The position numbers and the translations under genes were made by a program. This document shows positions 242-56,936 of a stretch of 64,000 nt of DNA, piece after piece. The stretch covers positions 620,001 to 684,000 of the forward strand of contig OZ237756.1 in assembly GCA_965178125.1 (NCBI GenBank), in the 5' to 3' direction. The stretch's first letter is position 1, and every line of letters begins with the position of its first letter. The notes under the pieces are model-generated. The model searched no databases. It saw nothing but the letters and a program-made list of their open reading frames with translations, and was not told where the DNA came from. The stretch is from Bilabrum cf. latius. Its lineage: Eukaryota.

Positions 242-3040
242 TTAATTTTGTTGTTCTAGTGGATCATTATCCTCATCAACAAATAAAGCGGGGTCTAAGT
301 CAACCTCTATCTCTTCATCGGGTAATTGAACCTCTTCATCATCAACAAATATATCTACTTCACGAGTCTTTTTCTTGTTAGACCAGATATATTCCATCTC
401 ATCGATAATATCCTAGTTAAATTCTACATCGTAATTAATTTTCTTTTTCTTACAAGTCATAAATATGTCTTTCCCAAACATTGATTTATATACTTTAAGT
501 ATTTCGTAATAAAGACCTTTATCAGTGGATAAGTCAACTTTACTTCTTCTTTGGCAGTCATACACTGTCCTATATTCATCTGTTAAGTCTTGGTCTAATA
601 CTTTCTTTTTGATATTATAATCAAGATTAGTTCTTTTAAGACCTAAAGTATCAATCATCTTATTAAGTAAGACTAATTTTCTAGAACTAGACTTAGCATT
701 GATAATATCAAACTCGCCTTTATTAATTGCTTTCACAAGTAAGTGTTTATCATCTTGTCTAAAGAATTTATTGAAATTAAATAAATTAGATAACTTACCT
801 TTATTAATAAAGTACTCTTTGTATTTGTCAATATCACCTTCATCTAAGTCTAAATATTTATTAATCTTCTTGACATTAAGACAATTAATATCAAAATTTT
901 CAAGTTGTTTTTCTTTAATGGTATCTTTGATTTCTTTATCCTTACATCTGGTGATCTTAACAGATAAATCATAAGACACGTCATAACCGGTATCAATTAA
1001 CTACTTGATCATATGTAATTTAGGGTTTGTCTTATAACAATCTACCTTGTAAAGATAATTACGATATAGTTTCTTGAATATGATTTTAACTTTGCTCATT
1101 TCTTCTTCTACTTTGTCTTCTACTTCTACCTCGTTGAAGTCGGGATATGTATCACTGACAAATTTAACTAATTCTTCGTAGTCTTTTAAAGAGGTAGCCA
1201 TAAAAGATTTAACTTGTGAAAGACTTTCATATGTGCTAGATCGTCCTTTCTAGTAATCAAAAAATATAGTGATATGTGATGGGTTTCTACATCTGTTAAG
1301 CTATTGAACCATTTGGGGAGGTGTGATAGTATGACCTTTGAAATAACCAAAGACTGGTCTAGTCATAGTGCTATCTATCCCGTAAATGACTTTAGGTGAG
1401 AAGATAATGATATCAAACATATCCATATCATAGTCTTTGTCTTCGCTTTCTGCTGTAAGTATTAAGATTTTATTTAATTTCTTATCTTTCTCGTTATCTA
1501 TAATTTTAAGACTAATTAACTCATTGATTATATCAGCTTTTGTCTTACTATCACTAGCAAGCATAAATTTCTTGTGTTTCATTAACTCATCTCTAAAAGT
1601 CTGTTCGTCATTAACAAATACAGTTTTGGTGCCCTTGAACCTGTTTCTGTCATTCCTAATATATTGATAATCTAATTTTAATAATTCTAAGAAATATAGA
1701 GCATCTTGAGATAAGTCAGCATCTGCTACTATGAACTACTTACAAGTGGTAAGAGCACGAATAAGAGTAATGAAACTCATTGGTCGCCTACCATATAAAG
1801 TCGTAGAACTTAAACAGTGTTCTAAGATACTATTAAACTCATCTAAAAAGACAATATAATCCTTAAAGTTATAATTGCTAAGACTAACAATACTTTCAGG
1901 AGTAATAACAATACTATCACCCTATTTGTATTTATGGTCTTGATAGAATTTAGTTGATTTTGGAAGACTACGCATCTATTGCTTACCTAATAAAATACGA
2001 CTAACAACTGATAAAAAGCTGTCATCTACTCTATTAAATAAATCATTAGCAGCAGTTGTCTTTCCAGAACCAGCCCCCGACTTAACGGCATAGTTGATAC
2101 CTTTCTTAAAGAATTTAATATAACGACCTTTGTCGTCAGCAGTCAAATATCTACGGTCAATCTTCTAATTGACTTTCTTGACTACTTTATTCTTGAATAT
2201 CTTGTATCGATAATATAGGCTAAGTCGTTTCTTTTCACTATCTAACTAATTAAAGAACCATTCAACACATTGAAAAGTGGAATTTTCTAATAATCGAGTA
2301 AAAATTATCTTGTTCTTAGTCGACTAATAGCTTTCTACGTCTTGTTTGCTCCATTCATCAAATATATCATATACCTTATTACCATCTACTGGATTTAAGT
2401 ATTTAGCGATATAACTTGTAGCTCTACAAACTAGATGCCAGTTATATGAATTAGAATAATACTCTTTACCTAATTGATATAAGTATTGTTTGTATTCTTC
2501 GGGTTTAATCATATAACGGTAGTCTTCAGCTGTAAGTTGTGGTGAATAGATATTTTGTAGTATGAACATCTTGACGTCAGTTGGTATTCTTTTCACGGAT
2601 GTCTTTTGTATTAGTTCGTATTTCTTACCGTTGATAGAGCTAGGAGGACACATGATAAAGCTATCATTTGTGATCACATCTATATGTTCTTTTCTATTTA
2701 CTGACCTCTTACTAAACTCTTCTTCATACTTAAAATACAAATGATATCCATTGGGAGACTTGACAGTGTAAGTATTCATCTCTTGAATAAACTTATCAAC
2801 ACTACCATATTCCGCAATAAACTTACCATTTTGAAATTCAGTTTTATTTTTCTCTTTTTCACAATCTAAGTCAAGGACAAAGAAACCTGCACGTCTTCCA
2901 GTTAGTAATCCAACATTAAGATTTGACTTTCTGGTGATAAGTTTAGTAGATTCCAAATTCTACCAAGACTTAATAAGTGGTTGTTTAGAGTTGTGAGCTA
3001 TTGAGAAATAAACAGGGTTAGATATGTGTTCGGTCGTCAT
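242..3040 (-). CDS. Prim-Pol primase fused to SF2 (UL9/origin-binding-like) helicase, 932 aa (TAG=Gln)
   Basis: ORF pieces 2324-2956, 1301-1582, 1001-1201 and 413-979 share one frame, separated only by TAG; motifs NVGLLTG..FVLDLD, GYHLYF, Walker A VKSGAGSGKTT, Walker B VFLDEF, Q-LNRCR; ends TAA. Confidence 0.88.
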
Positions 3041-9577: not shown

Positions 9578-9854
9578 TGGGAGCAAGATGCGGGTGTGGG
9601 AGTTTGGGTGTGGGACTGTAGGGATGGGATGGGGGAGGTTTGCAATGAATATCGGTTACCTGTGTTCTTGTATCGATGGGCGTATCGCGTGGCAGATGCT
9701 ACGTGCCACGGTCTGCTCGCTCGCAAGCAACTGCTCGGGTTTGATGCCCCACCCACCGTGGCCAATGAATCGGAGCATTGCATGATCCATCCGTGTTGCT
9801 ACAAGGCTACTACTCGACCGCACATAATCGAGCTTGACTTAGTCCGGTCTCGAT

Positions 9855-12695
9855 ATGGAACTTCTGAATAAAGAGCCATTTGCCCCTGCTGCAAAGCGAA
9901 GCCTTGCGCAGCGGTACCATGCCGGCCGCCCGTTTTAGCACGCCGTCGTTGATGGACTGTTCCCAGAAAAAGTGCTGGCCAAGGCAGAGTAGGCCATCTC
10001 CACGTGCGACTTTATCAAGAAAAGGAATGATCTTTACGACTTCGAACAGACGGACGACCTAAAGAATGCCAAGAAGGGAATCCTTGCGAGGGTGCGGGAT
10101 GCTCTGTTTTCGCCGGCAGTCCGCTCGCTCGTGGAGGACGCAACTGGGATCAAAACGACAGACCAGGTTGATCTAAGCTGCGCGCGGTACGGCTAGGGCA
10201 GCCACTTGCTCTGCCATGACGACGACTTGGCAACGCGAGTAGTTGCCTTCATTCTGTACCTGGTCCCGAGCGACTGGTCCGAAGAGGACGGCGGCCACCT
10301 GGACCTCTTCGCATGCGACAAGCACTACCAACCAACGCAAGTCGCGAAGCGCATCCTGCCAAAGCGCGGATCGCTCGCCTTCTTCGGAGTGCAGACGAGG
10401 TCTCACCACCAGGTGGCAGAGGTGCTCGCAGACCACAAAAAGAGGGGCTACCGGGTATCGATCTCCGGATGGTTCCACGGAACTCCCCCGCGCAGGCCAG
10501 TGGTCAGGCCCGTGCCGGGTCCCGCATTCGTCCCTCTGCTTTGCGACCAGAACGACAGGCGAGGGACCGGCCCGGCAGCAGTACTCGGAGCCGAATACGC
10601 AGGCGCCGACGACGGCGACTCGGAATCGGACGGGGCGAGCGAAGATCTCGAGGTCTCCATCGGAGGCGGCTCGGACAGCAGCAGCAGCGGCGGCGAATAG
10701 GAAGAGGAGGAGGAGGAGGAAGAGCACCACAGAGGAGGCAGCTCGCCCAAGCGGCGGCGCCGCGATGGATCGGATCAAGCAGGTTCCGCAGGCATGGCGC
10801 AGGCCGCCGTCGCCGCCGCCGCCGCACGGCTTGCGACCGCCCCCATGCTAGGTTCCGTAACCGGCGCCGCGGTGCTCCAGCTGGCCGTCCGTCGGCTGAA
10901 CCACCCCCTGCTCCGCCGGTGGATCAGCCCCACGTACCTGCAGCCGGGCGTACTGGCGAGGTTGCAACCGGTGCTGGTGGAGAACGGCCACGTGGCACTT
11001 CCGGATTTCATCCGCCCGGACGTGTTCCGGTTTGCCAGGCGTGCTGCCGACGGGCAGCAGTGGACGCACGTGGGACCACCCTCTATGCGGCACTACAAGG
11101 TCGCTGCAGTGCCCTGCACCATGCCCGAGCATGTTCCGCAAGCCGGCGCCGCGCATGGTGCGCTCTCCGCCGCCACAGCCTCCTCCTCCTCTTCTTCCTC
11201 CTCCTCGTCATCATCACCCGGGGCATCTTCCGCCTCGGCTTCATCGGCGCGGGGCACAGCAGCAGCGTCTGGGACCCCCGACTCGGAATCGAAATCGGGC
11301 AGGTCGGTCAGGGGCGCCATCGTGGCCCTGGAATCGGACCCCGCCGCTGTGGCAGCCACTCTCCTCGCCACGGCCCACCTGGCCCGGTTGCAACCGGATG
11401 GAGCCAGCGCGGATGAGCTGCTCGAGGTGGCGTCCACCGGTGGAGTGCGCGTCCCGGCCGAACCGGGGTCGCCGCTGTCGCACTCGTCACACGGTTCTAC
11501 GAAGGCACCGGAGCCGGCCTCGATGGACGTGCCGAGGGGCAGCAGCACCACGCTGGCGCCGCGCATTTTGCCCGGGGGCGGTTCCGCACTGCCCGATCCG
11601 TTCCTGGGGCTACGCTGTTTTCTGGCGTCGAACGCCTTCGCCCAGTGGCTAGAGGTGGCGTGTTCCCTGTGGCCGGGGGCGGTGACCGGCAGCACGGTGG
11701 AGGCCCGGCGATTCGGCCCCGGTGACTATAGCATGGTGTGCGACCCATCGCTCAGGGGGAAACCGTCAAGAGTGTCGGTCACTGGGGAACAGGGTGGTGG
11801 TGAAAGTGGCGGGGATGAAGAGGGTGAGGAGGAGGAGGAGGTGGTGGATTGCAGCGGTGGGGTGATCGACGTGTGTCTGCCCCTCCAGGCGGACGACGGG
11901 CCGCTGGGTGCATCGCACGGTGGTGCACCCGCAGGAGAGGATGAGGAGGAGGACGATGATGAGGACGAGGACGATGATGAGGACGAGGACGATGATGAGG
12001 AGGAGGACGATGATGAGGACGATGATGAGGAGGAGGGGTCAGGCTCCATGGACAACGGAGGTTACGTGTCATATCTGACAAACAGCCGGGAGCTGTTGAG
12101 CGTGCCCCCAAGCGCCAACACGCTGTCCCTCGTGCTGCGGCCGGCCGACGCGGGCGTAGGTGTGACGAGTGAGGATGCTTCGAGGGGTCCGTCGAGCGGA
12201 GCTGGGGCCGGCAGGGGTAACCACGAGGATGAAGATGAAGATGAAGACAGGGGAGACGATGGGGAGGACGAGGAGGCGGTGCACTCGTTCGTGAAGTATG
12301 TGACGAGTGCGAGCGGTTGCGACAGGGTTGACGTCATGGCGCGGTTCGCGGTGGCGGGGCCGGGGGTTGGTGCCGGGGCTGAATCCGGGGATGAGGACGA
12401 AGACGAAAACGAAGACTATGCCGGTGCCGGTGCCGGTGCTGGGGGCGGTAGCGATGGCGATGACGAGGGTGACGAGTTGCCTGTGTATGGCGGTGGGTTA
12501 TTGTGCGATGTGCTGTCGTGCTCCATGCAGGGCGATGAGGGGGATGGCGATGACGATGAGGAAGAGGAGTGTGATGGTCAGGCGGACGGCGGGGACGGGG
12601 ACGAGGCAGGCAATGCCAGTGGACGTGGGTCCAGCGAGGGGGAGGTATAGTTGGCGGGGGTTGCCGGCAGGAAGAGGAAACGGACCGGCAGGTGA
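9855..12695 (+). CDS. OGFOD1: OGFOD1/Tpa1-type ribosomal prolyl hydroxylase with acidic insertions, 946 aa (5 internal TAG)
   Basis: PF-HAVVDGLF, NDLYDFEQTDDLK, LLCHDD, AFILYLVP..W..EDGGHLDLF, SHHQVAEV, RVSISGWFHG; TAG at 9936, 9990, 10194, 10698, 12648; ends RKRKRTGR-TGA. Confidence 0.88.
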
Positions 12696-30781: not shown

Positions 30782-32623
30782 ATGCCCGAAATCGATTTTA
30801 TGGAACCCCAAAGAACCAAATTGCGTCTTAATGGGAAACCAATATGGAGTATGCGATTTGAGAGCGAGGACCTTATCACCGTAAAAGATGTCTTGGAATT
30901 TATTCGTGATTACGACGATGGTGGTGAAAATCCGTTTGATGACTTTAAATTTAAGGTGAATATCAATTTTCAAGATACAGGTTGGCGAACAAGAAGCACT
31001 TGGATTACTACAGATGATTTAGAAAATCAAGATAGTTTATGGGCGGGTTACGAAGACGACGATGACGACGAATATAGAAAATTGAATTCTTTTGAACTAC
31101 TGCTTATTAGAAAGCCAGAACCAGAAGGCGGTGCTGACGAACATAACGATTGTTTATATAACGCTATAAAATAGGCTTTTCCTTTTTCAGTTGGTCGTAA
31201 GGTAAATGTAAAGAACGCAAAAGGCAAATGGAAAACTACTATTAAAAGATTGTCGAAGTCCGACCTCAAAGAACTCTTGAAAATTGGGCGTGATGACCCA
31301 ATCGATTACAGAAGAATACCAGAGATAGAAGACGAACTTGAATTACGCATTCATGTTGTAGGCGACTTTGAATACACATCTGGAAAAACTCATTTTGACC
31401 GTCTTCTAACTGTTTCATTAACAAATGGGCATTACAAGTATGTTCCCCCCATTAGTTAGAAAGAATTATTTACACCGCCGTCTAAAGAACCGTGTAGACT
31501 AATAACCCGCTTGTATCAATCCGAGAATTCTTATTTACTATTTGATGGAGACCGTGAATATCAATCAGAAGGCATTACATCGGTTTTTAAGGAGAATTTC
31601 ATCCTTGACGTTAAATCCAAGGAAGAACTACGAACAAAACACGAAGAACGGATGAAAAATGTAAGGGCTTTATCAAAGGAGACGGGTGGATATATGGATT
31701 TATCACGATTTATGTTTAGAACATCCCTATTTGTAAAGTCGTATTTCAGTAAGTTTTCCAAACTTTACCCTGCCGACCCGATTGACCAAGTTGAAGCACT
31801 ATGGATTTCTAAAGCCTCGGGTGGTGGATTGAATTGGGCAAACAAGAATACTACATTAAAAAACGCATACCAGTACGATATTAACTCATTTTATCCAAGT
31901 ATTATGAAGGGTACATTTACATTTCCGGTTAGAAGGGGTAAGTTCGTAAAATTTGAAGTACCTTCAAGTGGTTTCTATCCGTACGGCATTTTTAGGGTAC
32001 ATATTGAAAATATCAATTCTAAATTGGTACAAAAAAGAAAAAACAATTATTATACTCAATATGACATCAACCGAGCGATTGAGACGGGCGCTTAGGTGTC
32101 ACTTATTGAAGACGGAGAAGCCAACGCTTTACTTTACGATGAGACAACAAGGGTGAAGGCAAATGGACTTTTCAAAACGATGATTGAGCGATTGTACGGT
32201 TATAAAAAATAGGGATTGAAGTGTGCGAAAGAGATACTGAACAACATCTGGGGTTCTCTATGTTAGAAAAACACAATCACAAAAACACTCCGAGATGGTG
32301 ATTGTATGAATTTTAGACAATTAAAGAACGCGTATCCTAAAGCATCTGGACGACTTGTATCGGGTACACTCTATGACGAAGAGTACGATTACAAAACAGC
32401 CTACGCAAGAATAGGTCCCTTTCTGACTGGACTTGGACGAAGTAAATTGTCCAAAATGATTGAGCCATATCTTGAAAACATTCACTATGTCAATACGGAT
32501 GGTTTCATTAGTGAGAAAGAATTACCTCTAAAGTTGTCAACGAACCTTGGGGGTATGAAGTTGGAGCAATCAGGTGAATGTCAAATTATTCACAGTAAGA
32601 AGAAACTTTTTAGAAAAGATTGA
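30782..32623 (+). CDS. Protein-primed family B DNA polymerase with N-terminal TP-like and vOTU-like domains, 613 aa
   Basis: YDINSFYPS, AKEILNNIWG, YVNTDG; GGADEHNDCL and LTNGHY; five internal TAG. Confidence 0.9.
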
Positions 32624-42446: not shown

Positions 42447-42809
42447 AAGCCCCTACAACTTAATAAACGGGCTAGAATTTAATAAAATATTTTAATATAA
42501 CCGCTATATTAAAATCTATACGATGGCTATATCCACAAATTGCGTATAATTATATAGTATTTCTAGCAAAACGTGGATGTAGGGCCTCTTGTGAAGGTGG
42601 TATGGGACCTTTAGATAATTTTTAAAAATAGTTCCATCACTTTAGAAGGTGTTAAAATACACCATTCATATCACAATCTATTTTTTAGGGCTAAATGGCA
42701 AAAATCACCTTTTACCTTCATTAATTATTATAGCCCCTTTAAGCCCTCTATAATTAAATATGGCGTTTAAAATAGTTTAAAAATATATTTCTAATAATAT
42801 ATATAGAAA

Positions 42810-45587
42810 ATGAATAATAAAAACCTCGTTAGTTTCCCCATCAAGCACAATCAAAAAATACCTGATGTTAAAAGCTGGCGATATCTCACCAAACCCGAGC
42901 CTAAACGATTTAATAATCAGAATATGGCTATTATCACCGGAGAAATTAATAATATAACCGTGTTTGATATTGATTCATATAAATGGAGCGATAAGAAGGA
43001 GCATTTATTCATCAAGAAATTTTCAGATGACTTTGTGAAGCGGTTCAACACATTCACGGTTAAAACAGCGGGTGGAGGGTATCATCTATATTTTAAATAT
43101 GATTAGAATATATTAACTACCACCAATAGAGATATTGACGTTGATATTAGGAATGATGGGGCTTATGTAGTGGCACCACCAAGTGGCATAAATGGGTCAA
43201 AATACGAAGTTATTAATAATGTAGAAATAAAAAAATGTCCTAAGGAGCTTTATAAATTTTATGAAAAGTATATTATTAAATCCTCTAAGAAATCCAACGT
43301 AAAAGGGGCGAGTAAAAGGATATCAAAAATTGATAATCAAGATGTGAATAACTGTATGATGAAATTCATTTTAAATGGTAAAGACTGGTCAATTATATTA
43401 AATAGACTAGATAAGAAATATTTAAATAATTATAGTGATTGGTATAAAGCAACCCTAGCGAGTAAATATTTAGGATTTAAGAAGGAATGGTAGGAGTGGA
43501 GCAAGAAGGGCAATAAATACGACTACCACAAAAATAACAAGGTGTGGAACTCTATCCATTATTTTGATAAGTTAAAAACCTTTAATTTAGTTAATTCAAT
43601 AATTTAGAATGATAAAAGTTTAAAGGCATTTGTGAAGGATAAGTATATTTCAAAGTGTTATTATCGTCCTTATGACGAGAATATTAACGGGTATACAGAA
43701 ATTAATAAACCTAAATTAGATGATATAGAGAAGCCCGAACGATTTTTTAAATATGAATATAATTATGTGGTAAAAAGTGATACAGGAACAGGTAAAACAA
43801 CAGCATTTAAGAAATACATTAAACAGGTTCAAACGCCGTTCTTATCCATTGTATCCCGTGTATGTTTAGGCACAGAGCAATACGAGAGCTTTTTAAATGA
43901 AGATATTAAATGTGAGTTCTACCAGAATAAAACTTTTGATTTTGGATAGTCTCTTATTATTACGCCGGAAAGTATCCCCCAAATTGTGAATTATGATTTT
44001 TCTAAATACATCGTATTCTTGGATGAATTCAATAGCATTATAGAGCATATATTAAGTTCTACTACGATGAATAATAATAGGGTTCTTGTATTATTTATTA
44101 TTTTAAAAATGATAAGGACGTGTAAATAGTTTATTGCTGTAGATGCTGACATATCCCAGATAGCGATGAAATTTTTAAAATGTGCTGGAGTAGAATTTAG
44201 CTTCATTAAGAATAAATATAAGCATTTTAAGGACGTAAAAGTATATTTTGAAAAAGACCAATAGAAATTTTACGATAAATTAAAAAGTGAAGATAAATTT
44301 ATACTGGCGTGTGATAGCAAGAAGAACGCAGATACATTTTATAAAATGTTATGTAAAGATGGTATAGAGGACGTTAAATTAATTACTAGTGATTTATTAC
44401 CTGATGAAGATGTGAGCTTAGATAAATATGATAAAATTATATTTAGTCCTAAAGTCATTTACGGATTAGATAGTGTAATGGAACGCCCAGTGTATGGATT
44501 ATATAAAGGAAAAACGATTCTACCGCCGTAGATGATGTAGCAACTGGCAAGATGTAGAAATCCCGAATATATGAATATATATTTTGAAGATGTAAAATCC
44601 ATTTATCCAAGATATGAGAATTTAAAGGAGGTATAGACGACCTTAAATATGGAAATTAACGCATAGACAGATTTATATACTAAATTAGAAAAATACGAAA
44701 AAAGGATAATGTAGGAGAATGATATTGACATTGATATTTTTGAGGGAGAAGATGATGAAGAGATAGCCCATAAAGCAATGATAGAGGCATCATACAAGGT
44801 TTATTTACCACTCAAGAAATTATATAATTTCAAATGTGATACATACGAAACAAATAAATATATTCATTTATAGCTTATTCTTAAAAACAGGGGTGCCGAT
44901 GTATAGGTGGATAAGGAATTACCACAACGAATGAATAAATAGCAGATGAAAGAGGCGACAATGGAGATACTACAAGAAAAGATTGATTCATTTGATGTAG
45001 AGAACGACCATATAAAAAGAAGAATTGAAATTTTAGGGCTACCAGAGACAGCCATAACGGAGGATATTAAAATGTTATTAATTGATAATTACAAATTAAT
45101 GAATTATTTTAATTATGCTAATTTCAAGAGAAAAGATAAATATAAACTAATGACAGAATTAAAGGATAGAAAGGATTTTAAGGATGAGAAAGCAAAAAGT
45201 ACAAAGAATAAAATAATCATATTATAGGAGATGTTATAGACGCTTAAATTGAATAAATTTGATTTAAGTTATACACGTAAAAATGAGAAATCCATTAAAT
45301 ATATAGAAATGGGTAAAAGATATGTAGAAGTAAGCGGGGCGAGATTATAGAAGCCAATAGAAACCGATAGTGAATTACACGGGGCAATCGTAAAATTATA
45401 TAAGTAGTTATTTGGAAATATTAAAACCTCTTGGAGTATGGGAAATAAAAAGGATAAAAAGGATAGAGAATTAAGAATTAAATTCACCAAGGAGAAAGAA
45501 TTATTTGATGAAGTTTATAAATATTAGTATCCCGAAATGAAGGACGTATACAAGGAATCCAACGAACGATTAGATTAGAATATTTAA
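42810..45587 (+). CDS. Prim-Pol primase fused to SF2 (UL9-like) helicase, 925 aa
   Basis: NMAIITG..VFDID, GGYHLYF, VKSDTGTGKTT, VFLDEF, QLARCR; colinear with 242-3040; ends TAA. Confidence 0.9.
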
Positions 45588-46565: not shown

Positions 46566-47273
46566 TTAAACTTTCATTAATTTTTTAGCTCTATCTACGG
46601 CGTCCATAAAGCTATCTTTTAATGTTGGTTCATTCCATAATACAAACCTAGACCAAAAAGCGGGGGATTTATAGTCTTTAAAGTCTTCATTTATTGAATG
46701 TCTTTTAATATAATTTTTCTTTTTACGGTTTGCTTCCTTCTCTCCATCTTTATTATAATATTGTATAAAGTCCATATAAGGAGTACCATCATTCTTAATT
46801 CCACCAAAATGAACAGTAAACAGAATATTATTACCTTGAACTACTTTAATCATATATTTTTTATTTGATTTAGTTGATTTATATAAATTAAAAACTGGTT
46901 TAGGTCTAAATGATTTCACGTGTCCGTTATTAAATTTTTCCTTCATTGCTTCCTCTATTTCTTCCGTGTCTAATTCTCCAAAGGTTAAAGGGGTCTCTTT
47001 ATTTATTCTTTTAGTGGGTCTATATATATCTCCTTTTTCCTAATATCCCTTTTCTCCCTTCTAATTCTTCCAATCCTCTAATTTCCACCTTCTTAAATTT
47101 TTCTATGCTTCATTTAATTTAATTTTATCATATGTCCCCCCTAGTTTTTTATATGATTTAAAGTATGCTAATGAACGATAAGCTGAAGGCTTTTTATACG
47201 TTCTATTTACTTTCTCAACTGCCTGACGCCATAATTTAGGACTATTAATATAACTAGGTATATTATCATTCAT
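46566..47273 (-). CDS. Two-domain hypothetical protein of a type seen in large DNA viruses, 235 aa
   Basis: PSAYRS..YKKLGGTY..LRRW..E.W..YRPTKRI..ETPLT plus KKYM..VHFG..YIKRH..SPAFWSRFVLW. Confidence 0.7.
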
Positions 47274-47467: not shown

Positions 47468-48967
47468 TCAAAGCATTAAACCGCCTTTTTTTCCTTTCCT
47501 TGATATAATTTCTTCTTTTTCATTTACGACCATTAAATCATTCTATCCGTGGATAATTAATTTCTATCCTTCTTCATTTATCTATTCTTTTTTATATTCA
47601 CCTAATTCTTTACCTACTTTAAAATTTAATCTTTTGTTAAATGTGATACTGTCGGTGTGAATTCGTATAATATGTTTAGCGTTGTTCTTATTCACTTTCT
47701 TCATCAATCGTTGTCTTCCATATGCCAGAATAAAAGGTTTCAATTTTCCCCAGCTATATTTAAAGGGTACTTTATGTTTTAAATGATAAATAAATTCTCC
47801 GTCATTATCCATTTCTACACGGTCAATATCAAATTTATCTATATTTATTTTTTTATCGTCTTTTGATGTAATTGTCTTTTTAGAGGAACTACATAATTTA
47901 CCCCATAATGAATTTAATATTTCTTTTGCTAGATATGATTTGCTTTTTAATTTGTAGAACATTGAGACATAGGATTTAAAAAGTGTTTCACTTTTGATAA
48001 ATTTATCATAGGTCATAAAATTAAATTCGTCGCTTGACATCTCTATCTCACAACCATATTTAACAAACATATTCATATCTGTAAAGACATAATAAGTAAA
48101 TTCATTTTCAAATACCTTCATCATTTGAAAGATATTCGGGTCGCATTTTCCACGGCTTACCTTACATTTATAAATCCCTATTTCGTTTTTATTATTAATC
48201 TATTTATTATCAATTGTTTTATAAATAGGATTTCCATATGGTAGTAGTGAATTAGATGACATAATGGCGGGGTAATGACTATTTATATCGTAGGTGATAA
48301 ACTCCTCATATTGTCCCTTCTTGTGATATTGAATCCCGCCACGCGTTGAACCTTCAATAAATACCGCTTCCTCTGGGGTTATATCTGGTGGGCTATCTAT
48401 CATCATATTAAACATTGTAAAGAAATGAAGGGCTGTTTGTCTGATTCCATATTTCATTACATCTAATGATGGGTTCTCGTCGTGTAATTCATCACTTGCT
48501 ATACTCAGCCTTAAGCTCCATTCTTTGATATCTTCATCCTCTGGGCATTCGTGAATGGTGTAATGAAGATAATATTTCTTTGAATGATAATCGGTTAGGC
48601 TCTCAACTCTATATTTATCTTTTTCAATTATTTCGGCTTTATCGGTTAATTTAACAACCATAGATTTATGGCACCGCACAAATAAAGGTTTCATCCTCTA
48701 GACGGCTTTAAATGAACCATCTTTATATTCTAAACAAACCCTTTTAAAACTCTTTTTTTTCCTACTTAGATAATAGACCTTTATATCGTCTTTCTCTCTA
48801 ATCTCTATATCCATTTTTAAACCTGAAACAAGTTTATAAAGGTTCTTTGTAGTTATGGGCTTACCGTTAAATACCTTTTCTAGATACTTCACGGATTGAA
48901 TGGGGTTATCATACTTTTTACCAAAGCATATATTTAATTGATTTAACACATTTTCGTAATTTATCAT
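47468..48967 (-). CDS. Short protein-primed PolB, 499 aa
   Basis: TYDINSHYPA, AKEILNSLWG, RIHTDS; three ORFs joined by TAG; ends TGA. Confidence 0.9.
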
Positions 48968-49045
48968 TTCCTATAGTATATTATATTTAATATATTTTTA
49001 AGCCATTTTAAACACATATTATAAAGTTTAAATTATAAAATGTAA

Positions 49046-49387
49046 TTATTGTTTCGGAGCAGTGAGGATTAATATAAATCTCTTCACTTGCTCATCACTT
49101 AAGAAGGTATAGCGAGAAGAAGGACTGAATAACATTACATCATCCTTTAATTTAAATGGTGAACCAGTTCGCCAGCCTATGGGGTAGAGAGAACTAACAT
49201 ACGCATCATAATTTTTTAAATGGGGCTTTTGTTTTAATAACCTCTAGATATATTTTTTTAATAAAGTCTTCATTTCTAAATCATTATATCCATCATCTGG
49301 ACGAGGAGGGAACACGAAATTATATACGGGCTTATTGTTTTTAACAAGTTGAGTTCTAACAATTTGAATATCACTTAATTTAACCAT
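49046..49387 (-). CDS. Stand-alone homolog of the pPolB N-terminal (terminal-protein-like) domain, 113 aa
   Basis: RTQLVKNNKPVYNFVF..GWRT..FILIL matches RTKLRLNGKPIWSMRF..GWRT..FELLL at the N-terminus of element 2 pPolB. Confidence 0.72.
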
Positions 49388-49479
49388 TTTTATATATATA
49401 CTATAGATATTTTATTTTTAAGCCAAATACACGCGTTTAAAATGACTTAAAGATTTTATTTTATTATAATATATATAGA

Positions 49480-50025: not shown

Positions 50026-50347
50026 ATAATTTAATATTTATACTAATATTAAATATGATATCTTTATTAATAGTTGAACACCTTGACCATCTAATAAAAG
50101 GGCTAGAATATTAAAATATATATGGTTATCTCTATAATAAAATCCATACGATGGCTATATCCACAAATTGCGTATTAGTATATGTATTATTTAGCAAAAC
50201 GTGGATGGATTAGTTTTATGAAGATGATTTGATTGATAACGTATTTCTAGCCCAAAAGTTCCTTCACTTTAGAAGGTTGTAATATAGCCCCTTCTGACTC
50301 CCATCATCAATATGTTAAATATTAATTTTATCATTAATATCTAATTA

Positions 50348-50899
50348 TTATTTACCAATATGACATTTATAACAAATTGAATATTTCATATCTTTAATTC
50401 TAGACACTCCGCATTTTTTACACGCCTTTTTTCCATATTTTGTAATCGTATAACAAGACTTACAGGTTGTCCTCCAATCACCTCTAGCCATTTTACAAAG
50501 ACACACATCACATCTTTTTTCATTCCTCTTTTTTTCCTCTAACTTTTTCTATTTCTTTTCTAACTCAATATGTCTTATTCCTTCACAGTGCTTATTATAT
50601 CGGTCTCTTGCGACATCCTTTTTACATATTCCACACCACTAATATAAACATTTTTTACGAATTTGATTTTCTTTATCCTTTATCATCTACTTTATACAAC
50701 TAGAACCCACTTTAAAAACATATCCACTAGGGGTATGCTCTATTTCGTGCTCGGTTCGTATCTCGTGCCCACAAATACAATTACCCAATTTATCACCTTG
50801 AATAACGGTTGAGCCAATATGAATTAATTTCTTCTAAATGTCCACCCATTTTATATTACCGGTATGTTCCTATATTTGTTCAATACACTTTTTACACAT
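50348..50899 (-). CDS. Cys-rich multi Zn-finger protein, 183 aa
   Basis: CICGHEI...VGSSCI and several CxxC pairs; open only with TAG=Gln. Confidence 0.7.
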
Positions 50900-50905
50900 T
50901 CTCTA

Positions 50906-51720
50906 TATAATATCTATATAATATAATCTTTAAGTCATTTTAAACGCGTTATATTATAAAAAAGGGGCTTAAAAATAGACACTATAGAAATAGATGATTA
51001 TATTAATTAATATTATTAAAATATTAATTAATTAGACCGGTTAAATAGTTCTTTGGAAAGTATGAACCTACTTTGAAAAGTATGAACCAACTTCGGAAAG
51101 TATGAACCTACTTTGAAAAGTGTGAACCAACTTCGGAAAGTATGAACCTACTTTGGAAAGTATCATTCACAGGTCATATATTTATTTAATATGTATAAAT
51201 AAATAATAAAATGATTATCTAGAGACATCTATTAAATATTTGTTGAAATACGTGCCCACTATTTTATTATACTACTTCAAATGATACAGATACAGCGTCT
51301 TAAATTTATTATTTGTTTGTTTTAGACTGTCAAAACAACCATTTATATAACTTAGATATCTACTGTTTTCATCTGTGTCTTTATCCAAAACACAATCAAG
51401 TAATCCCATAGTTGTTTTCACATTTTTATAAGCGTTTAGATAATTATCATAAAAGTCTAATAGGTCTTCTAGTTCAGTTATATGATAATCTTTAGATTCT
51501 TTCTTAGTGGAGAAAATAGTGCTTTCCGTTTTCTCACGCTTTATAAAAGCCTCAGTCATTTTTTCTTCTTTTTTAAAGGCAATTTTGATTTCTTTTGATA
51601 CGAGTCTATAAAAATTGTTCATTGTATCATAATAATTATCCATTGTGTGTATAATATCTATATAATATAATCTTTAAGTCATTTTAAACGCGTTATATTA
51701 TAAAAAAGGGGCTTAAAAAT
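50906..51720. promoter_or_regulatory. Duplicated 71-bp bidirectional promoter-like block (50906-50976, 51650-51720)
   Basis: Identical copies with AAAATGACTTAAA on the minus strand and GGCTTAAAA on the plus strand. Confidence 0.65.
51215..51643 (-). CDS. Hypothetical protein, 142 aa
   Basis: ORF 51272-51643 extended through TAG to TAA. Confidence 0.6.
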
Positions 51721-51747: not shown

Positions 51748-52554
51748 ATGGACAAATAGAGATTTTCATTGACCTTTGGCGATGCTGGAGAGAATCATAT
51801 AGGTATGGAAATGTTAGGTGAAAGGCTCAAGGAGGGAGAAGGATTTAAAAATGAAGATTTGAAGGGGGTGATGGAGGTATGCGAGGAGAAAGGGTTTAAA
51901 TGTGAAATGATAAATTTAGATGAAGATGTAGATGAAGATTTAGGGGCTAGGGTATTAATAGTAAGGGAATTTTATAAAAAGAAGAAAATTAAAAAAGTCT
52001 TTGACGAGTTGAAGGGGTTAGAGTGGGACAAAAAGTATTTTGATAGAAGGCGGGGGAGGGTGTTAAATAAAAATGCCCGTCATAATTTAGTATTTATGAG
52101 TGATAATGAATAGAAAGAAGATTATGAAAAGGGATAGGGACGAGTATATGATGTGAATAAATTGAAAATGATGAAGGGAGTAAAGAAAAGGGTAGATAAA
52201 TATATAAAAATGGGAATGGATAGGGTAAAAAGTAAATCCAAAAGAGTAGATTACGTTATAGAGGGTAATAATTATTATGATTTGTCCCGCACAATGATAG
52301 GATTTCACGGTGATAGTGAAAGAAGGCGTGTAATATGTCTATCAGTCGGTGGTTATGATGAGCCTATGGCGTGGTGGTGGTTCAAAAATAGCAAGCCGTT
52401 ATGTGAGCCCCGTATTATTAAATTAAATAGTGGAGATTTATATATGATGAGTGAAAAGGCGGTTGGTAGTGATTGGAAGAAGAAGAAAGTGTCCACATTA
52501 AGACACAGTTTTGGGGAAAAAGGCATATAGGCGGGATTAAAAAAATATAAGTGA
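51748..52554 (+). CDS. 2OG-Fe(II) dioxygenase (AlkB-like fold), 268 aa
   Basis: TFGDAGENHIGM, NKNARHNL, EGNNYY, IGFHGDSER (HxD), LNSGDLYMMS, TLRH; ends TGA. Confidence 0.82.
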
Positions 52555-52771
52555 TTATAATAATTAATATTATTAAAATATTAGTTAATTAGACCGGTTA
52601 AATAGTTCTTTGGAAAGTATGAACCTACTTCTGAAAGTATGAACCAACTTTGAAAAGTATGAACCAACTTTGAAAAGTGTGAAACAACTTCGGAAAGTAT
52701 GAACCAACTTCGGAAAGTATCATTTACAGGTCATATATTTATTTAATATGTATAAATAAATAATAAAATGA

Positions 52772-53062
52772 TTATCTTGCCTTATGTAATTGAATAGGTT
52801 TCTTTTCTAATAGACAAACAGCCAAATAATGAAGTACAATGTCATCATCTCTATACTTATTCCTCGTCTATATAATACATTTATAGGTTGAATATTTGAG
52901 ATATAATAGCTTCTCTCTACTGTCCTTTTTTAATTGATTGGTGATTTCTATTACCTAATCACTGTTTGTAAAAATTACGGTCAAAACTCCATCAATTTCT
53001 GTCTGGATATAGACATCGTGTGTAGGCGGTAGATTCTCAATAATTTTATTTAACTTTTCCAT
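52772..53062 (-). CDS. Hypothetical protein, 96 aa
   Basis: AAAATGACTTAAA motif upstream; open with TAG=Gln; ends TAA. Confidence 0.5.
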
Positions 53063-56024: not shown

Positions 56025-56360
56025 TTTATTTATATATTAAAGCTATACAAATAAATATTTATTAATAAACCTTATCTAATATTTCATCTTGATTTTTACC
56101 CTTCACTTTTACCAATATATTTAAAAGTTTGATTGAATTTAGATGGATGAAAAATTGCCCTTCTAAAACGATGGAACTTTTCTAAATAAAAGGGCTTATA
56201 TCTTCATTTCACCTTCACAAGAGGCCCTACATCCACGTTTTGCTAGAAAACACTATAATATATACGCAATTTGTGGATATAGCCATCGTATGGATTTTAT
56301 TTTAGAGATAATCATATTTTATTATTTTATTCTAGCCCTTTTATTAGATGGTCGGAGTAT

Positions 56361-56936
56361 TCAATGTAGAAGCAACGCCACTAACTAATCAGGACTAAGA
56401 GCCATAATTTTGGATATTCTAAACATTTCATTTACAAACTAATCATTTGATAAGAAAGAAAAAGCGTTTCTTAATAGAGCCCATCTTCCACACGTAGCGC
56501 TGTTGTTAGCATAACTCTAAATCGGTTTATGATTATAATCAATTTTCCAACCTTCCATTTTCTAATCAATTAAATACTTTACCAGCGTATTTTCTTCTCC
56601 TTCTCCTTGATACAATTGGTCTCTATTAATAAATGGTTTCTATTGGTCGGGTTTTTCTCCATAGCTATCAAAGAAGTATATTATTTTGCTTGATGGTTTT
56701 CTGGTCAATGAAATGAAATGACCGTATGTGCTATTTAGTCCCGTCTTTTTATTAGGATAATAAATAATTACGCCGTCATAACCATCAAAAATATGTTCAA
56801 TAGATGAGGTCTATTTAATAATATCATCGTAAATAACTATTCTAGGTTTGTAATTCAAATGTGCTACACCTAATTTTTGAATTTCTAAAGGAGATAACGG
56901 TGTTTGGACTAGTCTATTTAAGTCGTTTATGTTCAT
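56361..56936 (-). CDS. Adenain-like maturation cysteine protease, 191 aa
   Basis: YGHF, FFDSYG, YNHKPI(TAG)SYANNSATCGRW. Confidence 0.92.

Follow-up and report, generated by a model that had tools for sequence, protein, structure and literature searches.

The pPolB DNA polymerase of mavirus carries a terminal protein (TP) domain, a vOTU domain and a polymerase palm (TP-vOTU-PALM) in one polypeptide, and other arrangements are described in PMC11071308 (the preprint of a PNAS 2024 paper by Krupovic, Koonin and colleagues), where the TP and vOTU assignments rest on structural models. According to that source, adenovirids have a stand-alone pTP together with a pPolB whose N-terminal vOTU is inactivated, the split removing the need for self-cleavage; in a polinton of the coral Stylophora pistillata the TP has a gene to itself and pPolB is fused to a vOTU that is active; and mavirus pPolB has itself lost most of its exonuclease domain. 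Here we analyse a pair of genes in a virophage-like element (element 3) that lies within a 64,000-nucleotide (nt) stretch of DNA from the eukaryote Bilabrum cf. latius (NCBI GenBank assembly GCA_965178125.1, contig OZ237756.1, positions 620,001 to 684,000; hereafter the window, from whose first letter all positions are counted). When TAG is read as a sense codon, the two genes encode a 113-amino-acid (aa) protein that appears to be a stand-alone TP and a 499-aa pPolB that has no TP domain. The concept is not new, given the adenovirids and the coral polinton with its active vOTU; what element 3 most likely presents is a recurrence, in an element of the mavirus type, of the pattern known from adenoviruses. 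We found no description of such a split in mavirus- or virophage-type elements in the literature searched, which included PMC13215967, 10.64898/2026.07.28.741278, PMC12721341 and 10.64898/2026.10.13.758929, although further split forms may be listed in the supplements of PMC11071308 and of the preprints.

Like the adenovirid pair, element 3 makes its TP from a gene of its own and has, at the vOTU position of its polymerase, a domain that lacks the catalytic His and probably also the Cys. It differs from that pair in being of the virophage type, with Sputnik-like MCP/penton domains and an rve integrase, in the short distance, only about 140 residues, from the His position to motif A of the polymerase, and in its TP, which at 113 aa has no helical extensions and no insertion. 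The stretch of about 140 residues fits the account of exonuclease-domain loss given for mavirus (PMC11071308). Among viral structures, mavirus pPolB matches the 113-aa model best, and in size and organisation it resembles the fused relatives found here, that of element 2 in the same window included; element 3 departs from it by encoding the TP separately and by not having an intact Cys/His dyad. With the Stylophora pistillata polinton, element 3 has in common an independent split between TP and vOTU, but the polinton is an animal element and, by its description, keeps both the Cys and the His.

A probable terminal protein gene upstream of pPolB

A first-pass annotation of the window, made from the sequence alone, had read the pPolB of element 2 as an N-terminal domain followed by GG, NDCL and NGHY, and had taken the corresponding N-terminal domain of element 3 to be a separate upstream gene. 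The first of these readings is borne out by GG116-117, NDCL122-125 and NGHY215-218 of the element 2 protein, and the second, with TAG as sense, by a profile-profile match with shuffle controls, a predicted fold and an invariant Tyr. The features concerned are these:

49046..49387, minus strand: stand-alone TP gene, 113 aa, with a TAG read as sense at codon 48 and TAA as its stop
49109-49111, minus strand: codon of Tyr93, the candidate priming residue, in the TP gene
48968..49045, minus strand: spacer of 78 nt between the TP gene and pPolB, in frame with both, with three further TAA codons and one TAG
47468..48967, minus strand: pPolB without a TP domain, 499 aa, with five TAG codons read as sense and TGA as its stop
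30782..32623, plus strand: comparator, the fused TP-vOTU-palm pPolB of element 2, 613 aa (Pfam DNA_pol_B_2, E 2.3e-6)
30782-31132, plus strand: TP domain of the element 2 pPolB
31127-31132, plus strand: GG116-117 of the element 2 pPolB
31151-31153, plus strand: Cys124 of the element 2 pPolB
31430-31432, plus strand: His217 of the element 2 pPolB

Read with translation table 11, the region from 47468 to 49387 gives open reading frames (ORFs) of only 180, 164 and 89 aa; read with TAG as sense, it gives the 499-aa ORF and the 113-aa ORF. The latter reading is justified because the ORFs of the AT-rich elements never stop at TAG (the 25 of at least 180 aa end in TAA in 13 cases and in TGA in 12), because 24 of these 25 contain in-frame TAG codons (167 in total), and because a host gene at 9828-12695(+) must be read through six TAG codons to yield a normal two-domain protein (2OG-Fe(II) oxygenase plus Ofd1 C-terminal domain). 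TAG is a sense codon across the window, in its GC-rich host genes and its AT-rich virophage-like elements alike, and ORFs end only in TAA or TGA; on the condition that TAG is so read, the split of the gene is confirmed. As to the residue encoded, positions opposite TAG in alignments are enriched for Gln (6/55, against a background of 2.1%), and Gln is our best guess, left unsettled because relatives carry Lys, Ser, Tyr or Glu at single TAG sites. No tRNA genes were found within the window.

The two ORFs share a frame and lie 26 codons apart. Four TAA codons separate them, the first gene's own stop included (the spacer translates as APKQ*LHFII*TL*YVFKMA*KYIKYNILQEMINYEN), so the separation is not one single nonsense change. 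The break falls at a specific place, in that Met1 of the split pPolB corresponds to the residue right after the Gly-Gly in 9/9 fused forms.

Homology of the 113-aa protein to the N-terminal TP (D1) domain of TP-vOTU-pPolB proteins is supported by comparison of profiles. Pairwise BLASTP gave two colinear high-scoring segment pairs with E values of 0.063 and 0.090, which taken alone are weak and suggestive. When six stand-alone proteins (described below) were compared by hhalign with the TP domains of eight fused pPolBs, that of element 2 among them, a kind of check that the first-pass annotation had proposed, residues 1-92 matched residues 1-88 with a probability of 94.8%, an E value of 5.1e-8 and a score of 46.8, the best of 100 column shuffles scoring 18.4. 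An earlier and thinner profile of three TP sequences had given an E value of 7.7e-6 and a score of 35.3, with a shuffle maximum of 16.9. The D1 domains of fused proteins are 110-142 aa long, and the 113-aa protein comprises the core elements only. No family match for it was found in Pfam or PHROGs.

The predicted structure of the 113-aa protein is consistent with this homology. A confident AlphaFold2 model (predicted local distance difference test, pLDDT, 86.8; predicted template-modelling score, pTM, 0.82) has the order strand, strand, long helix, strand, strand, short helix, strand. Comparison of the model by Foldseek, which had likewise been suggested, ranked first among the predicted viral structures of BFVD a 617-aa protein, the DNA polymerase of Cafeteriavirus-dependent mavirus (query TM-score 0.64, E 5.4e-3, probability 1.00), while 35 of the 45 matches listed from the PDB were Y-family polymerases or the little finger of Pol IV (best E 7.8e-3, probability 0.99). 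These matches support a little-finger-like alpha/beta fold for the modelled protein. Of solved folds, the nearest to the model is the little-finger (PAD) domain found in Y-family polymerases, for instance E. coli Pol IV (4IRC, 4IR1, 1UNN). There is no sequence similarity between the two (the TP profile matched nothing in PDB sequences below E 1), and the 113-aa protein is a stand-alone viral protein and not part of a Y-family polymerase. A relation to the little finger has been described both for PRD1-like terminal proteins and for the D1 domain of eukaryotic pPolBs, and the little-finger domain has been proposed as the origin of PRD1-like TPs (PMC11071308). The second match in BFVD was A0A7D4VFN9, a 560-aa protein of Drosophila-associated adintovirus 2 annotated as 'C2H2-type domain' (E 0.033, probability 0.96); possibly this is a TP that a polinton-like virus of animals encodes on its own.

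In an alignment of eight TP-only sequences (A6) the only invariant columns are Met1 and Tyr93, and Tyr93 is kept also in all six stand-alone proteins. It lies in the motif SPSSRY, in the model between the short helix at 89-92 and the strand at 103-109, just ahead of the loop into the last strand. This is the region in which PMC11071308 puts the residue, a Ser or Tyr with a Gly or Pro close by, that does the linking in PRD1, adenovirus and D1 domains. From its conservation and its place in the model, Tyr93 is the likely priming (linking) residue.

Several points weigh against the reading of the 113-aa protein as the priming TP. The structural matches are modest, none reaching an E value of 0.001 and those in the PDB having query TM-scores of 0.42-0.51; the Foldseek match to the mavirus polymerase comes without target coordinates; and the alignment that fed the model included fused homologues. 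In PRD1 and adenovirids the stand-alone TPs are described as bearing helical extensions; the 113-aa protein has none, although PMC11071308 does not treat such extensions as defining for the fold. A search of elements 2 and 3 for terminal inverted repeats found none. Element 3 also encodes a Prim-Pol plus helicase protein, so protein priming may not be its sole route of initiation. This last point invites a different account, in which the 113-aa protein would be a little-finger-like DNA-binding accessory factor, the Prim-Pol plus helicase protein would initiate replication and pPolB would only elongate. The 925-aa Prim-Pol/PriCT-2 protein speaks for it, as do the PDB matches of the model, which are DNA-binding little-finger domains, and the description of virophages with two replication genes as possible transitional states in another protist (10.64898/2026.07.28.741278). 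We nonetheless think it improbable, in that the 113-aa protein shares ancestry with the domain recognised as the TP in the literature (PMC11071308), keeps the invariant Tyr, is conserved as a unit and immediately precedes pPolB, with the same promoter-like motif before both genes.

That conservation was evident from searches for relatives. When 1.84 billion representatives were searched by phmmer with the 113-aa protein, two matches came back, of which one, P0018 (109 aa, 61% identical), is a true relative; the other, P0019, is a 1028-aa tandem-repeat protein matched over 10 short stretches, and was dropped as a repeat-driven match. Searching proteins of 59-249 aa with the TP profile added P0024-P0026 (112-114 aa) as well as the fragments P0027 and P0028, whose status is uncertain. 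The stand-alone homologues P0018/P0020, P0024, P0025 and P0026 (109-114 aa) thus make up four clusters besides that of element 3. The six stand-alone sequences are 61-77% identical, one pair at 98% excepted, and all terminate in APK(Q/P). P0018 and P0005, a pPolB that is 62% identical to the 499-aa protein, share 3763 bp as their longest contig, which suggests that the two are neighbours, and a second copy of the 499-aa protein, 99% identical, is present on another contig. These sequence comparisons support conservation of the split across other contigs. In a tree of the polymerase part, which is unrooted, the split clade (100/100) adjoins the fused P0006 (80/95) on a long branch, among the fused forms. 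We note that 6/14 pPolB relatives (P0008-P0012 and P0016) are only 368-420 aa long and start downstream of the vOTU region, some of them on contigs of more than 14 kb; these could be further split forms or ORFs shortened by gene calling with the wrong code.

The polymerase encoded downstream of the TP gene looks functional, as judged from three motifs and from profile matches:

48269-48292, minus strand: motif A, YDINSHYP
47900-47926, minus strand: motif B, KEILNSLWG
47648-47662, minus strand: motif C, IHTDS

The 499-aa protein matched the element 2 pPolB by BLASTP (E 4e-21) and the fused forms by hhalign (E 2.3e-46, residues 141-475), and the family profile (alignment A2, in which the 499-aa protein, P0002, is included) matched phi29 DNA polymerase with an E value of 1.9e-10. 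P0002 alone has no Pfam polymerase match; PF03175 is matched by 6/10 relatives.

Could the polymerase gene instead have decayed to a pseudogene, element 3 being a dead copy left in the genome and the apparent split the debris of stop mutations in a linker? In favour of this account, element 3 is integrated, both ORFs share the frame of the spacer, and the N-terminal domain of the split pPolB is highly diverged. We consider it very improbable, however, as both ORFs are intact with TAG as sense, the six stand-alone proteins have the same length and the same end, and each of the two genes has its own copy of the promoter-like motif. Moreover a pattern search recovers motifs A and B in P0005, at 62% identity, and inspection by eye shows an AHTDS there that resembles motif C; the retained half of the N-terminal domain is conserved about like the rest (30/45 residues identical by eye).

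The domain at the vOTU position

Ahead of the polymerase part, the split pPolB retains a domain at the place that the vOTU occupies in fused forms:

48683..48967, minus strand: N-terminal domain of the split pPolB, residues 1-95
48947-48949, minus strand: Val7, most likely at the Cys position
48713-48715, minus strand: Ser85, at the His position

A survey of Cys and His status in the fused relatives (598-660 aa, element 2 included), as the first-pass annotation had suggested, found GG, NDC(L/F) and HY in 9/9; a search with the first 230 residues of the element 2 pPolB returned only two close relatives. In the fused forms the Cys follows the GG by 7 residues (eight cases) or 9 residues (one case), Cys and His are 75-93 residues apart, and the His precedes motif A by 146-157 residues. 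The split pPolB has YENVL at residues 4-8 and KDGSF at residues 82-86. Counted from Met1, residue 7, a Val, stands at the Cys position; Val7 and Ser85 are separated by 78 residues, within the range of the fused dyad, and Ser85 and motif A by 141. Both MAFFT and hhalign aligned the strand bearing the His (CLEYKDGSFKAV in the split form, VSLTNGHYKYV in the fused), with Ser85 under the His, and the residue at this position is Ser85 in P0002 and P0004 and Glu in P0005. Because residues 1-99 of the split pPolB (P0002) contain no His, the loss of the His is independent of alignment, and the catalytic His is absent from this domain. For the Cys, a change to Val at residue 7 is most likely, an assignment that depends on how the sequences are aligned. 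To the first-pass annotation both catalytic residues of element 3 had appeared to be missing; this stands for the His, and for the Cys it turns on the choice between Val7, given by the offset from Met1, and Cys14, given by MAFFT.

We infer that the N-terminal domain of the split pPolB descended from a vOTU. A number of results count against this descent, or against loss of the whole dyad. MAFFT twice put Cys14 under the catalytic Cys, although Cys14 and Ser85 are 71 residues apart, outside the fused range, and this placement deletes most of the helix after the nucleophile; low-stringency hhalign put Asn6 at the Cys position. By hhalign, residues 1-100 matched the profile of the fused vOTU at noise level (E 0.29, score 10.9) and scored higher against the unrelated TP profile (17.8, E 0.015), a match that is itself at the level of shuffle noise, while hhalign of the full-length protein aligned it only from residue 141 on. 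The AlphaFold2 model of residues 1-100 is poor (pLDDT 49.4), and a Foldseek search with it, uninformative given the quality of the model, found no OTU chain among the matches listed (best E 0.056). Finally, because the Pfam OTU family was found in 0/10 relatives, fused forms included, and the whole-protein profile likewise gave no OTU match, the OTU label of the fused domain rests on the GG/NDC/HY motif and on PMC11071308.

The want of a significant match to the fused vOTU profile, the full-length alignment that begins only at residue 141, and the poor model with no match to an OTU fold could together mean that the split TP is genuine but that the polymerase begins with ~95 residues of some other domain, unrelated to the vOTU or put in its place, the protease having been lost or swapped and not decayed. 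This we regard as unlikely, although less so than the accounts involving an accessory factor or a pseudogene. The distance from the residue after the GG to the His position is 83-100 residues in the fused forms and 85 in the split pPolB, and that from the His position to motif A, at 141 residues, is near the 146-157 of the fused forms. The strand (D/N)G(S/E)(F/Y)KAV is aligned with NGHY.YV by both MAFFT and hhalign. In addition, in the model, low in confidence as it is, four strands come after three helices; residue 7 falls within helix one and residue 85 where strand four begins, a placement that agrees with the location of the vOTU Cys in alpha-1 and His in beta-4 described in PMC11071308. 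Taken together, our analyses support the first-pass reading of the split, with caveats as to the status of the Cys and the OTU ancestry of the domain.

Promoter-like motifs and the elements of the window

Each gene of the pair is preceded by a copy of a promoter-like motif:

49413..49424, minus strand: promoter-like motif GGCTTAAAAATA, ending 26 nt before the ATG of the TP gene and preceded by TAAACGCGT
48993..49004, minus strand: second copy of GGCTTAAAAATA, ending 26 nt before the ATG of pPolB

The window has four copies of the sequence GGCTTAAAAAT where 0.13 would be expected (0/100 shuffles reached four), and all four are in element 3. Three of them, before the 113-aa gene, pPolB and a 268-aa gene, end 26-27 nt ahead of the ATG; the fourth, at 50966, lies 17 nt ahead of the ATG of a short frame. 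An intergenic module of 85 nt (…TTTAAGTCATTTTAAACGCGT…GGCTTAAAAAT) is present at 50892-50976 and 51636-51720, with 94% identity, and in a partial copy at 49413-49455 upstream of the TP gene. A direct repeat of 231 nt (94%), at 50990-51220 and 52547-52777, brackets a 142-aa gene and the 268-aa gene. The sequences of the module and the repeat suggest a duplicated or inserted cassette. A scan for sigma-70 promoters and terminators found 16 sites against 15.3 expected, which is no enrichment and is irrelevant to a eukaryotic virus.

Elements 2 and 3 are of the virophage type by their Sputnik-like MCP/penton domains and rve integrase. Element 3 has a penton V18/19 match (E 5.3e-7), an rve match (E 5.8e-11) and an MCP_V20_C match that is weak and under the Pfam cut-off (E 0.0036); element 2 has MCP domains (E 1.6e-27 and 8.1e-25) and rve (E 6.8e-10), and in both the rve integrase carries a chromodomain. 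Element 2 encodes an S3H-like helicase. Element 3 has two replication modules, namely the 925-aa Prim-Pol/PriCT-2 plus helicase protein at 42810-45587(+) and the TP and pPolB pair at 47468-49387(-), and the Prim-Pol protein of element 1, at 242-3040(-), is 33% identical to its element 3 counterpart. No second copy of a TP or vOTU was found within the window, beyond whose end element 3 may extend. Other genes of element 3 include that of the 268-aa protein at 51748-52554(+), which has a weak, below-cut-off match to 2OG-Fe(II) oxygenase (E 7e-4) and a promoter-like motif of the TP/pPolB type upstream, and that of a 235-aa DUF5872 protein at 46566-47273(-) (E 4.9e-21). An intergenic sequence of ~130-160 nt recurs in element 3 at 42480-42604, 50074-50207 and 56205-56364, in direct and inverted orientation and with 81-96% identity. 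The AT-rich virophage-like elements lie on both sides of a GC-rich stretch (window ~5-26 kb, about 0.6 GC) with eukaryotic genes for armadillo-repeat and RING finger proteins, a thymidine kinase and a ubiquitin-conjugating enzyme.

Proposed fission at the Gly-Gly site and what it would mean

The account that we find probable, though by no means certain, takes element 3 to be a virophage-like element of the mavirus type, integrated in a eukaryote with TAG as a sense codon. Its ancestral TP-vOTU-palm gene would have been divided at the Gly-Gly processing site or no more than a few residues away. From the 113-aa gene upstream the terminal protein, a little-finger-like alpha/beta domain, would be made directly, and this TP would pair with the polymerase and offer Tyr93 for the first nucleotide; the downstream 499-aa gene would make the polymerase, starting at what is the post-Gly-Gly residue of its fused relatives. 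Each gene would be served by its own copy of the promoter-like motif. With cleavage no longer needed after the split, we propose, the protease dyad decayed, the His changing to Ser and the Cys most likely to Val, and the domain of ~95 aa would have been retained, perhaps as a docking surface for the free TP. A bolder form of this account, which we would put at about even odds, is that a whole clade of mavirus-type elements independently repeated the adenovirus change, with fission at the Gly-Gly, death of the vOTU and docking of a minimal 113-aa TP by the dead domain.

We know of no virophage for which protein priming has been demonstrated biochemically. A separate, conserved 113-aa TP provides a defined protein boundary and one candidate priming residue, Tyr93, and elements 2 and 3 form a matched fused and split pair in one genome, suited to direct assays. 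Element 3 is, besides, one more independent case of a rule already in print, by which a split of the TP goes with loss of vOTU activity. If the adenovirus change has indeed been repeated across a clade, the sole essential job of the vOTU in these polymerases would be release of the TP, and nature would itself have marked both where exactly the virophage TP ends and which Tyr primes.

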